64,000 nucleotides of DNA from Escherichia coli (GCF_030384885.1 NZ_CP128613.1), one strand, 5' to 3'; counted from the first letter of the stretch, positions 36,732 to 38,923 are shown. Notes: generated by a model not told the origin, from the letters alone. A program made the numbers and translations.

Positions 36732-37883
36732 ATGTCACTTGTCACCGATCTACCCGCCATTTTCGCTCAGTTCTCTGAAGCTCGCCAGAAAGGCTTTCTC
36801 ACCGTCATGGATCTCAAGGAGCGCGGCATTCCGCTGGTTGGTACCTACTGTACTTTTATGCCGCAAGAGATCCCAATGGCAGCCGGTGCGGTTGTGGTTT
36901 CACTCTGTTCCACCTCTGATGAAACCATTGAAGAAGCGGAAAAAGACCTGCCGCGCAATCTCTGCCCGCTGATTAAAAGCAGCTACGGCTTCGGCAAAAC
37001 CGATAAATGCCCCTACTTCTACTTTTCCGATCTGGTGGTGGGTGAAACCACCTGCGACGGCAAAAAGAAAATGTATGAATACATGGCAGAGTTTAAGCCC
37101 GTGCATGTGATGCAATTGCCCAACAGCGTTAAGGACGATGCCTCGCGTGCATTATGGAAAGCAGAAATGCTGCGCTTACAAAAAGCGGTAGAGGAACGTT
37201 TTGGACACGAGATTAGCGAAGATGCTCTGCGCGATGCCATTGCGCTGAAAAACCGCGAACGTCGCGCACTGGCCAATTTTTATCATCTTGGGCAGTTAAA
37301 TCCTCCAGCGCTTAGCGGCAGCGACATTCTGAAAGTGGTCTACGGCGCAACCTTCCGGTTCGATAAAGAGGCGTTGGTTGACGAACTGGATGCAATGACC
37401 GCCCGCGTTCGTCAGCAGTGGGAAGAAGGCCAGCGACTGGACCCGCGTCCACGCATTTTAATCACCGGCTGCCCAATTGGCGGTGCAGCAGAGAAAGTGG
37501 TGCGCGCGATTGAAGAGAATGGCGGCTGGGTTGTCGGTTATGAAAACTGCACCGGGGCGAAAGCGACCGAGCAATGCGTGGCAGAAACGGGCGATGTCTA
37601 CGACGCGCTGGCGGATAAATATCTGGCGATTGGCTGCTCCTGTGTTTCACCGAACGATCAGCGCCTGCAAATGCTCAGCCAGATGGTTGAAGAATATCAG
37701 GTCGATGGCGTAGTTGATGTGATTTTGCAGGCGTGCCATACCTATGCGGTGGAATCGCTGGCGATTAAACGTCATGTGCGTCAGCAGCACAACATTCCTT
37801 ATATCGCTATTGAAACAGACTACTCCACCTCAGATGTCGGGCAACTCAGCACCCGTGTCGCGGCCTTTATTGAGATGCTGTAA
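36732..37883 (+). CDS. yjiM: YjiM, 2-hydroxyacyl-CoA dehydratase component-D-like protein (HgdB/BcrC family)
   Basis: 383 aa from ATG preceded by GGAAGGA (MSLVTDLPAIFAQF...); conserved cysteines typical of HgdB-like subunits. Confidence 0.88.
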   Translation: MSLVTDLPAIFAQFSEARQKGFLTVMDLKERGIPLVGTYCTFMPQEIPMAAGAVVVSLCSTSDETIEEAEKDLPRNLCPLIKSSYGFGKTDKCPYFYFSDLVVGETTCDGKKKMYEYMAEFKPVHVMQLPNSVKDDASRALWKAEMLRLQKAVEERFGHEISEDALRDAIALKNRERRALANFYHLGQLNPPALSGSDILKVVYGATFRFDKEALVDELDAMTARVRQQWEEGQRLDPRPRILITGCPIGGAAEKVVRAIEENGGWVVGYENCTGAKATEQCVAETGDVYDALADKYLAIGCSCVSPNDQRLQMLSQMVEEYQVDGVVDVILQACHTYAVESLAIKRHVRQQHNIPYIAIETDYSTSDVGQLSTRVAAFIEML

Positions 37884-37892
37884 GGAGTGGCA

Positions 37893-38660
37893 GTGGCATA
37901 TTCGATTGGCATTGATTCCGGCTCAACCGCCACCAAAGGGATCTTACTGGCAGACGGCGTGATTACGCGCCGTTTCCTCGTTCCAACACCCTTTCGCCCG
38001 GCAACAGCAATTACTGAAGCCTGGGAAACTCTGCGCGAAGGGTTAGAAACAACGCCGTTTCTGACGCTCACCGGCTACGGGCGGCAACTGGTGGATTTTG
38101 CCGATAAACAGGTGACGGAAATCTCCTGTCACGGGCTGGGCGCTCGGTTTCTTGCGCCAGCAACGCGCGCGGTAATTGACATCGGCGGTCAGGACAGCAA
38201 AGTGATTCAGCTTGATGATGACGGTAACCTGTGCGACTTCCTGATGAATGACAAATGCGCGGCGGGCACCGGGCGTTTCCTGGAGGTGATCTCGCGCACG
38301 CTTGGCACCAACGTCGAACAGCTCGACAGCATAACGGAAAATATCACGCCGCACGCCATCACGAGTATGTGTACAGTGTTTGCCGAATCAGAAGTGATCA
38401 GCCTGCGCTCAGCGGGCGTCGCGCCAGAAGCGATTCTCGCTGGAGTGATTAACGCGATGGCGCGGCGGAGTGCCAATTTCATTGCTCGCCTCTCCTGTGA
38501 AGCGCCGATTCTGTTTACTGGTGGCGTTAGTCATTGCCAGACGTTTGCCCGGATGTTGGAAACTCACCTGGGAATGCCGGTAAATACCCATCCTGATGCG
38601 CAATTTGCTGGCGCAATTGGCGCAGCGGTAATTGGTCAACGAGTGAGAAAACGCCGATGA
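37893..38660 (+). CDS. yjiL: YjiL, BadF/BadG/BcrA/BcrD-type ATPase (2-hydroxyacyl-CoA dehydratase activator-like)
   Basis: 255 aa from GTG after TAAGGAG (MAYSIGIDSGSTATKGILL...); acetate/sugar-kinase-fold ATPase motifs; 10 nt after the yjiM stop. Confidence 0.88.
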   Translation: MAYSIGIDSGSTATKGILLADGVITRRFLVPTPFRPATAITEAWETLREGLETTPFLTLTGYGRQLVDFADKQVTEISCHGLGARFLAPATRAVIDIGGQDSKVIQLDDDGNLCDFLMNDKCAAGTGRFLEVISRTLGTNVEQLDSITENITPHAITSMCTVFAESEVISLRSAGVAPEAILAGVINAMARRSANFIARLSCEAPILFTGGVSHCQTFARMLETHLGMPVNTHPDAQFAGAIGAAVIGQRVRKRR

Positions 38661-38923
38661 AAGAGTTTTTATTTTTATTTCACTCCACGGTCGGCGTCAT
38701 ACAAACCCGCAAGGCGTTGCAGGCAGCGGGCATGACTTTTCGCGTCAGCGATATTCCCCGTGATTTACGCGGCGGCTGCGGGTTATGCATTTGGCTGACC
38801 TGTCTGCCCGGCGAGGAAATACAATGGGTGATCCCTGGGCAGACCGAAGCGATATATTGCCAGCAGGGCAGCAACTGGCAGTGCGTGGTGCATTACGATT
38901 CAGAAGCGTCAACCAGGCAATAA
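38657..38923 (+). CDS. Small DUF3343-like protein (88 aa), translationally coupled to yjiL
   Basis: ATG overlaps the yjiL stop (ATGA); pattern FLFHST...ALQAAG...P.PR.L..GCGLCIW resembles DUF3343 small proteins; assignment by eye only. Confidence 0.5.
   Translation: MKEFLFLFHSTVGVIQTRKALQAAGMTFRVSDIPRDLRGGCGLCIWLTCLPGEEIQWVIPGQTEAIYCQQGSNWQCVVHYDSEASTRQ

Follow-up and report, generated by a model that had tools for sequence, protein, structure and literature searches.

Three genes of the plus strand, yjiM, yjiL and a small gene corresponding to ytiA, occupy positions 36732 to 38923 of a stretch of 64,000 nucleotides of Escherichia coli DNA (GCF_030384885.1, NZ_CP128613.1; one strand, hereafter the window). 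The first, yjiM (36732-37883), encodes a protein of 383 amino acids (aa) that we assign, by the NCBIfam model NF040772, by its match to the Protein Data Bank (PDB) entries 6ENO/7YYL and by RefSeq, to the class II double-cubane-cluster proteins (DCCPs), and that is proposed to be the catalytic electron acceptor. The second, yjiL (37893-38660, 255 aa), specifies an ATP-dependent reductase (an 'archerase' of the DCCP reductase or DCCP-R type) for which a [4Fe-4S] cluster bridging the dimer is predicted (TIGR00241; PDB 1HUX and 7yyl_E). The third, the ytiA-like gene (38657-38923, 88 aa), encodes a member of PF11823 (DUF3343, 'putative Se/S carrier'), as judged from Pfam, orthologue alignments, an AlphaFold2 model and the ratio of nonsynonymous to synonymous substitution rates (dN/dS). 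We hold the chances to be evenly balanced that yjiM-yjiL-ytiA form one operon for a three-part, ATP-driven DCCP-type reductase system of very low potential.

All three genes lie where an earlier note on this DNA had placed them and are annotated coding sequences in E. coli 2013C-4282, to which the window is 100% identical between 36600 and 39300, so that the segment is E. coli chromosome. In the RefSeq annotation of that genome mdtM, yjiN, yjiM, yjiL, a DUF3343 protein, a pentapeptide-repeat protein, a yjiK-like gene and yjiJ follow each other on one strand, and the products of interest are named "double-cubane-cluster-containing anaerobic reductase" (yjiM), "putative 2-hydroxyacyl-CoA dehydratase activator" (yjiL) and "DUF3343 domain-containing protein". 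The K-12 counterpart of the small open reading frame (ORF) is likewise annotated (ytiA, b4715, 85 aa). The genes and their families are already known; what is added here is quantitative support for a habitual partnership of PF11823 proteins with DCCPs, and a sharper, testable hypothesis about selenium (Se) and sulfur (S).

The reading frames are tightly packed. The stop codon of yjiM (37881-37883) overlaps an AAGGAG Shine-Dalgarno sequence, and two GTG codons offer themselves as the start of yjiL, one at 37887 (mechanical ORF call) and one at 37893 (RefSeq). We judge the latter to be the better choice because it lies 5 nt past AAGGAG; the gap between yjiM and yjiL is then 9 nt. The ATG of ytiA (38657-38659) overlaps the TGA of yjiL (38658-38660), and this ATGA overlap (38657-38660), which the earlier note had described and which is read directly in the sequence, implies translational coupling of the two genes.

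The family of YjiM is indicated by several lines of evidence. The protein scores 409 bits against Pfam HGD-D and 531.2 bits (cut-off 350; positions 1-372 of 372) against the double_cubane equivalog NF040772, while the equivalogs for dehydratase and reductase subunits remain below their cut-offs (HadC 95.4/700, HadB 21.6/750, BzdN 76/454 bits). Its nearest solved relative is the DCCP of Carboxydothermus hydrogenoformans (6ENO/7YYL, E=5.4e-75), followed in the PDB by BzdN, MbdN and HadC (E between 1e-14 and 1e-18). A word-index homologue search with YjiM listed matches that were all at least 86% identical. Jeoung, Martins and Dobbek counted YjiM among the sequences with a seven-cysteine motif, regarded it as a possible type of "class II" DCCPs, which they define by missing N-terminal channel-closing helices, and took YjiL for its archerase-type reductase partner (PMC7317905). 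Indeed, the alignment shows that YjiM is without some 36 N-terminal residues relative to 6ENO.

A three-way alignment gives nine cysteines common to YjiM and the 6ENO protein, and Cys 40, 59, 78, 93, 108, 273, 302 and 335, but not Cys304, are invariant in 82 homologues including the C. hydrogenoformans protein (DCCP_Ch). The seven-cysteine motif, which according to the ligand list of a 2020 review (PMC7317905) comprises six cluster ligands and one cysteine beside the cluster, pairs C40/C59/C78/C108/C273/C302/C335 of YjiM with C76/C95/C114/C144/C309/C341/C374 of 6ENO. In its printed form (CX19CX18-19CX29CX166-170CX32-34CX32C) the motif matches literally neither YjiM nor 6ENO, the spacings being off by 1-4 residues; since the expression fails even on 6ENO, the cysteines were assessed by alignment columns.

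YjiL is the counterpart expected of such a protein. It belongs, as the earlier note had recognised, to the family of ATP-dependent electron-injecting activators, with 362.5 bits against TIGR00241 (cut-off 125.4) and 255 bits against Pfam BcrAD_BadFG. It matches HgdC (1HUX, 1e-52), HadI (4EHT) and the DCCP-R chain 7yyl_E (6e-47) in the PDB, and possesses a GIDSGST motif of the ASKHA phosphate-binding type. Cys122 and Cys160, invariant in 64 homologues, stand in the motifs NDKCAAGTGRF and CTVFAESEV that are shared with HgdC, and the equivalent motifs of DCCP-R contain its cluster ligands C115 and C152 (PMC9351452). A reductase (activase) gene adjoins the DCCP gene in at least 63 of 81 YjiM-like loci. 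Taken together, these comparisons make it almost certain, as far as sequence can tell, that YjiM and YjiL are a DCCP and its reductase.

This assignment changes the picture of an 'orphan' dehydratase module that had been drawn for the two genes. The earlier note saw in YjiM one dehydratase subunit lacking its partner, and indeed yjiM is the only HGD-D-type gene among the ORFs between 33000 and 43000 of the window and in the corresponding RefSeq region; the dehydratase identity itself is not supported. The solved C. hydrogenoformans DCCP is a homodimer that requires just its reductase (PMC7317905), so no second HGD-D subunit is to be expected and the pair is not orphaned. That yjiML is nevertheless the remnant of a 2-hydroxyacyl-CoA dehydratase or benzoyl-CoA reductase whose second catalytic subunit was lost would agree with the HGD-D assignment, with the distant likeness to HadC, BzdN and BcrC and with the solitary gene, but we regard it as very improbable. 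The equivalog scores favour the double cubane, YjiM has the full DCCP set of cysteines rather than the three-cysteine set of dehydratase subunits (PMC7317905), and the single-gene layout is kept across phyla. The dN/dS of yjiM against other Enterobacteriaceae is 0.045 (0.069 for yjiL; both rough, with dS saturated), and such strong purifying selection together with cross-phylum conservation is unlike a remnant.

The small ORF was described in the earlier note as DUF3343-like with a cysteine pattern, and this description is borne out by a score of 48.4 bits (cut-off 25) against PF11823, the Se_S_carrier family formerly called DUF3343. Twenty YtiA orthologues of Enterobacteriaceae, 54-78% identical, have in common H9, the stretch D32-I-P-R35 and the motif C41-G-L-C44, with a variable C-terminal third. 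Among 91 diverse PF11823 members obtained by a profile search of the full library, C41-G42 alone is invariant, and P34 and F8 are conserved in at least 90%; a conserved cysteine in the family had been noted by Lin et al. in 2015 (PMC5322559). The AlphaFold2 model (predicted local distance difference test score 89, predicted template modelling score 0.78) has a ferredoxin-like beta-alpha-beta-beta-alpha-beta-beta topology and places Cys41 in an exposed loop of residues 33-42. By fold it matches PII/GlnK best, along with other ferredoxin-like regulators or metallochaperones of a generic kind; a sulfurtransferase fold of the TusA/YedF type, which was considered, is not supported by structural similarity to TusA-like carriers, and the YtiA sequence compared with PDB chains returned noise only.

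That the 88-aa ORF is a spurious or non-functional frame behind yjiL is barely conceivable. Its C-terminal third is variable, the allele of the window departs from that of K-12 after codon 70, and dN/dS rises to 0.28 beyond codon 48. Against this stand the Pfam score above cut-off, residues that are invariant across genera, a confident structure model and a dN/dS of 0.11 in codons 1-48 (0.128 for the whole gene against 17 other Enterobacteriaceae, again rough owing to saturated dS). The gene is also kept in 25 of 25 gammaproteobacterial loci, in some of which the protein is just about 35% identical. Of 5426 complete E. coli genomes, 5385 have the DNA of ytiA, and each of 60 that were taken at even intervals down the ranking has an intact coding sequence annotated there.

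The 3' end of ytiA is a point of divergence within the species. Collinearity with K-12 (96.5% identity) stops at 38867/38868, inside codon 70-71, and the 88-aa protein of the window therefore differs from the 85-aa K-12 allele in its C-terminal 18 residues. The 3' end found in the window is shared by 639 of 5426 genomes, about the same number as carry the pentapeptide-repeat island described below.

How regularly PF11823 genes accompany DCCPs was examined in two sets of loci, whose ORFs were scanned with PF11823 profiles built here. The first consists of the best-matching 80 genome loci with a YjiM-like protein (57-96% identical, about 383 aa). Its gammaproteobacterial part covers Escherichia, Citrobacter, Klebsiella, Raoultella, Kosakonia, Kluyvera, Cedecea, Trabulsiella, Hafnia, Morganella, Aeromonas and the metagenomic locus L003. 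The order DCCP-activase-PF11823 was present in all 25 loci that extend far enough (L007, whose sequence ends before the expected position, was left out), and most of them have an overlap of the ATGA or GTGA kind. The flanks of these loci vary and include yjiN/mdtM, DUF2164, a pseudouridine synthase or parts of ABC transporters.

The second set was obtained with a "long" DCCP of Dorea that had been found beside a YjiM-like locus and that shows 52% identity with DCCP_Ch and 39% with YjiM (NF040772, 512 bits); it comprises the best 80 metagenomic loci, 55-92% identical to the query. Of these loci, 73 have no less than 350 bp of sequence downstream of the DCCP gene, and in 67 of them a PF11823 gene comes directly next; these are not independent events, since the loci rank highest for a single query and stem from related lineages. 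All ten of the post-DCCP PF11823 genes that were checked pass the Pfam cut-off (51-86 bits). YtiA is closer to the generic PF11823 type of YedE/YedF clusters (median 29 bits) than to this post-DCCP type (median 7 bits). The two pairings thus use different PF11823 subfamilies, which suggests that the association arose more than once, and judging by these scores it probably arose separately in the YjiM-like and the long-type lineages. From the gene-coupling statistics and the gene neighbourhoods we consider it quite probable that YtiA works together with YjiM, and the proposal of an uncharacterised redox enzyme system made of three genes gains support. A full-text literature search for 'DUF3343' returned no DCCP paper, and the term is absent from the DCCP review PMC7317905 and from a cluster paper.

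A metagenomic contig (L005:912-1297) shows a different state. There a 48-aa ORF joins the N-terminus of YjiM (MALIKGLPSIF) to that of YjiL (GIGIDSGST), and an intact PF11823 gene follows; from its sequence, this locus appears to have lost the DCCP and its reductase by deletion and to have retained the carrier gene.

The sole recurrent functional theme in the neighbourhoods of DCCP genes is the mobilisation of selenium or sulfur. The 80 loci of long-type DCCPs include 32 that have a selenocysteine lyase of the SclA/EF2568 family within 6 kb, 12 that have YedF and 3 that have SelD, with architectures such as SelD-YedF-PF11823-activase-SclA-DCCP-PF11823. Over the same distance, an enzyme of the EF2568/SclA family (TIGR01977) is found in 8-10 of the YjiM-like loci of Firmicutes, and YedF (TIGR03527) in 4. 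One YjiM-like locus has the order YedF, EF2568 family, PF11823, DCCP, and one locus of Bacillota the order YedF, SelD, DCCP, activase, MocA and, further on, xanthine dehydrogenase (XDH). There are, further, two loci from Enterococcus moraviensis and Enterococcus sp. DIV0212c (L049:1999-12550 and L059:2918-12463; DCCPs 61-62% identical to YjiM), in which a xanthine permease, a ModE-like protein, XdhC, DCCP, activase, a Se-dependent XDH (TIGR03311, 1535 bits, cut-off 830), MocA/YgfJ and SclA follow each other; the selenocysteine lyase of the Enterococcus locus scores 715 bits against NF040779. Generic PF11823 genes occur in the contexts YedE(Sulf_transp)-TusA-PF11823 and Aminotran_5 lyase-YedF-PF11823, as described by Lin et al. 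for clusters of YedE, YedF and lyase genes (PMC5322559).

Traces of this association can be found in the literature. In a STRING table for Slackia, an activase and HGD subunits are named, without comment, as partners of DUF3343 and YedF (Lin et al., PMC5322559), and Haft noted that DCCPs co-occur with a selenoprotein locus and floated a Se-bridged 2(4Fe-4S)-Se cluster (bioRxiv 10.1101/2022.07.06.499078). DCCP and DCCP-R also appear with other putative selenium genes in Fig. 5 of a preprint from 2023 (PMC10418091). The table of the Enterococcus hydroxylase locus given by Haft and Self in 2008 omits the DCCP pair (PMC2276186), and recent papers on anaerobic purine degradation make no mention of DCCPs or activases.

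Further arrangements were seen in single loci. In Acetoanaerobium pronyense (L036:9196-10488, minus strand) a 430-aa protein has an N-terminal PF11823 domain (64 bits) fused to a radical-SAM domain; its gene adjoins that of a paralogous 457-aa protein and lies 2 kb from a YjiM-like DCCP/activase pair. In Acetobacterium paludosum and A. fimetarium (L056 and L058, about 2186-5773) the genes directly upstream of DCCP-activase-SclA family encode a ferredoxin and an [FeFe]-hydrogenase, with YedF and PF11823 convergent downstream; the ferredoxin and hydrogenase are possible electron donors for the reductase. In Clostridium and Mordavella (L077, L082 and L083) the DCCP-activase pair is followed by genes of thiamine salvage or synthesis (ThiD-like kinase, ThiM, ThiE); L077 and L083 also have a permease of the cytosine/purine/thiamine type. 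The arrangement may be fortuitous or may represent a second context related to sulfur.

By analogy with the C. hydrogenoformans homologue we infer the electron-transfer cycle and the homodimeric state of YjiM and YjiL. A YjiL homodimer bridged by its [4Fe-4S] cluster would take up an electron from reduced ferredoxin or flavodoxin, bind MgATP and dock on the YjiM homodimer. During ATP hydrolysis and product release it would push the electron into an [8Fe-9S] double cubane, at which YjiM would then reduce its substrate. The ATP-coupled injection of electrons into DCCP by its reductase has been described (PMC7317905, PMC9351452), and the double cubane of the solved protein is not reducible by dithionite or Ti(III) citrate (PMC9351452); that YjiM binds an [8Fe-9S] cluster and is reduced by YjiL and MgATP would follow from the same protein (PMC7317905, PMC9351452). 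YtiA, made in step with YjiL by way of the ATGA overlap, would carry selenium or sulfur as a cysteine perselenide or persulfide on Cys41 to or from YjiM. The likeliest physiological task of such a system would be the reductive mobilisation of Se or S, for example the release of selenide or sulfide from carrier-bound Se(0) or S(0) for later users, SelD among them. The role in Se/S mobilisation, in which the loop cysteine of YtiA would bring either element to the cluster or take it away, is suggested by gene neighbourhoods and we put it forward tentatively, as somewhat less than an even prospect.

Several observations weigh against this role. Among the Firmicutes, PF11823 genes occur within 6 kb of the YjiM-like DCCP gene in just 8 of 55 loci, in other gene orders, and a more sensitive profile gave no further matches there; with none nearby in the remaining 47, YtiA is not obligate for the function of class II DCCPs. 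The expectation that the small ORF is present in most genomes with yjiLM, on which the earlier note had staked its proposal, thus holds for every assessable gammaproteobacterial locus, and adjacency is lacking in most of the Firmicutes loci. The other neighbours of the YjiM-like genes in Firmicutes are heterogeneous (chemoreceptors, ABC transporters, regulators and, in three loci, the thiamine salvage genes), so that the Se/S theme covers a minority of these loci, and the high frequency among long-type DCCPs derives from related lineages. In E. coli itself the operon has unrelated neighbours (yjiN, mdtM, yjiK) and no Se gene nearby in the annotation. The second cysteine of the CGLC motif is often replaced by A, S, T or G and is lost in Aeromonas, Hafnia and Morganella. 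The reduction of a persulfide or perselenide is not obviously in need of an ATP-boosted electron. Finally, the name 'Se/S carrier' for PF11823 rests on comparative genomics (PMC5322559), and in the literature we found no member of the family shown experimentally to carry Se or S and no experiment on YjiM, YjiL or YtiA; a search on 'ytiA' returned titles on zinc homeostasis, ribosomal proteins and unrelated topics, and none on the E. coli gene. A physiological substrate is known for no DCCP (PMC9351452).

The same neighbourhoods admit another explanation, which we consider rather unlikely: YtiA may be a maturation factor and the DCCP a client of an S/Se-trafficking machinery of SclA-type lyase, YedF and PF11823, which would supply the bridging chalcogenide (a ninth sulfide, or a selenide in vivo), with the reductase acting on some other substrate. 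The occurrence of PF11823, SclA, YedF and SelD beside DCCPs fits this equally well, and the fusion of PF11823 to a radical-SAM, maturase-like protein beside the DCCP locus of A. pronyense is of a kind with it. So is the composition of [8Fe-9S], whose one mu2-sulfide ordinary Fe-S assembly would not obviously provide (PMC7317905), and so is the 2(4Fe-4S)-Se cluster that Haft thought possible. However, DCCP_Ch overproduced in E. coli shows [8Fe-9S] with its mu2-sulfide bridge (PMC7317905), a result in which ytiA of the host was uncontrolled. Moreover, one would sooner expect a subunit or a carrier than a catalytic assembly factor to be a small protein coupled by ATGA and made in roughly stoichiometric amounts, and the 47 Firmicutes loci with no PF11823 gene nearby count against this explanation as well.

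YjiM may, alternatively, act on a substrate that has nothing to do with Se or S, such as a CoA ester, a larger molecule or a compound of the acetylene, azide or hydrazine type, and YtiA would then be an accessory subunit, a CxxC thiol-disulfide relay or a PII-like regulator. This, too, seems to us fairly improbable. Jeoung and Dobbek argued that YjiM without the channel-closing helices may admit a CoA ester or a larger substrate (PMC7317905), and our alignment confirms the missing N-terminal residues. Most YjiM-like loci of Firmicutes are without Se/S genes nearby, the fold of YtiA is closest to PII/GlnK and generic ferredoxin-like regulators or metallochaperones, and the CGLC motif of Enterobacteriaceae would suit a thiol relay. 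What the Se/S reading has in its favour are the pairing of PF11823 with DCCPs in two lineages and the selenium genes beside them.

Upstream of the operon, a conserved region of predicted elements (36653-36731, plus strand) precedes yjiM. It contains an invariant ATCAA (36654-36658), a -10-like box TAATAAT (36681-36687), a hairpin CCCGTGGTACGGGG (36708-36721) and a Shine-Dalgarno tract GGAAGGAAAA, which the predicted hairpin abuts. In an alignment of ten loci from Escherichia, Citrobacter, Kluyvera and a metagenome-assembled genome, the last 50 nt or so before the yjiM ATG are almost invariant, with the remaining spacer variable. The ATCAA lies about 23 nt 5' of the -10-like box, a spacing like that of a class II half-site of the FNR/CRP type. 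A site for FNR was considered and is not claimed, because this half-site alone is conserved and the left half reads GCGAG instead of TTGAT. Scans for promoters and terminators from 36500 to 39300 gave three matches of each kind, no more than in shuffled sequence, and Rfam at a permissive threshold from 36400 to 39300 returned only a meaningless match to bxd_1 (E=0.5).

Other features were noticed in the DNA around the operon. Downstream, an island of low GC content (38868-41578; 0.31-0.39 compared with about 0.52) contains a plus-strand gene (39231-41312) for a 693-aa pentapeptide-repeat protein, whose only likeness, below threshold, is to the type III secretion effectors PipB, PipB2 and SopA. 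Of 5426 complete E. coli genomes, 635 carry this gene; K-12 does not and has 135 bp at the site. The yjiK-like gene and yjiJ beyond the island (41579-43645) share about 81% DNA identity with K-12, compared with 96.5% for yjiM-yjiL, and by its sequence this looks like a hypervariable or recombined segment. Upstream, an intact minus-strand gene for a 318-aa recombination-promoting nuclease of the Rpn family (32629-33585) occupies the site of the K-12 pseudogene rpnD.

Double-cubane reductases are often likened to nitrogenase and are, to our knowledge, one of just three known enzyme classes that use ATP to reach very negative potentials. The findings bear on how selenium passes from selenocysteine lyase to SelD and the Se-dependent molybdenum enzymes. 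A bolder proposition, to which we give a rather low probability, is that PF11823 proteins are dedicated partners of DCCPs and that the pair supplies a missing step of selenium metabolism, either the ATP-driven conversion by the DCCP of carrier-bound Se(0), which would stem from selenocysteine lyase or elemental selenium, to selenide for SelD and Se-dependent Mo hydroxylases, or a DCCP cluster bridged by selenide that PF11823 delivers, in which case DCCPs would form a new class of Se-dependent enzymes. If it were true, yjiM-yjiL-ytiA of E. coli would be a minimal and genetically tractable model. The adjacency of PF11823 and DCCP genes in two lineages and their selenium neighbours make the questions of the DCCP substrate and of the handover of selenium testable in E. 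coli with three small genes.

Family membership of the three proteins, their conserved cluster cysteines, the coupling of the genes and the statistics of their neighbourhoods, all of which are read from sequence, allow the system to be set beside those already known. It resembles most closely the DCCP/DCCP-R pair of C. hydrogenoformans (CHY_0487/CHY_0488; 6ENO, 7YYL), with E values of 5e-75 for YjiM and 6e-47 for YjiL, aligned motif cysteines, an adjacent reductase gene and a score above the NF040772 cut-off. Because of this clear homology, ATP-coupled injection of electrons into [8Fe-9S] is expected for YjiM and YjiL. YjiM differs in being about 39% identical over the aligned region and some 36 residues shorter at its N-terminus, and the E. 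coli operon has a third, translationally coupled gene of the PF11823 family that goes unmentioned in the DCCP literature we examined. The 2-hydroxyacyl-CoA dehydratases (HgdAB/HadBC with HgdC/HadI) and the class I benzoyl-CoA reductases belong to the same superfamily in both components, YjiL being nearest in sequence to HgdC/HadI (1e-52), and share the archerase logic of ATP-dependent low-potential electron donation. They combine, however, two paralogous HGD-D subunits, which each hold a three-cysteine [4Fe-4S] cluster, into heterodimers or heterotetramers, whereas YjiM is the product of a single gene with the seven-cysteine set and, unlike them, has no CoA-handling genes nearby.

With the PF11823 proteins of clusters of YedE-YedF and selenocysteine lyase genes (PMC5322559) YtiA shares the invariant Cys-Gly loop, and it scores best with that generic subtype. 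Unlike them it is attached to a DCCP/reductase pair, and the role of 'carrier' is an inference for the family as a whole. The last comparison is with the Se-dependent Mo hydroxylase maturation locus of Enterococcus (SelD, YedF, SclA, YgfJ/MocA, Se-XDH; PMC2276186): unlike in E. coli, where the equivalent hydroxylase genes lie elsewhere on the chromosome and outside the window, the DCCP and activase genes of E. moraviensis and Enterococcus sp. DIV0212c stand between XdhC and the Se-dependent XDH, followed by MocA and SclA.

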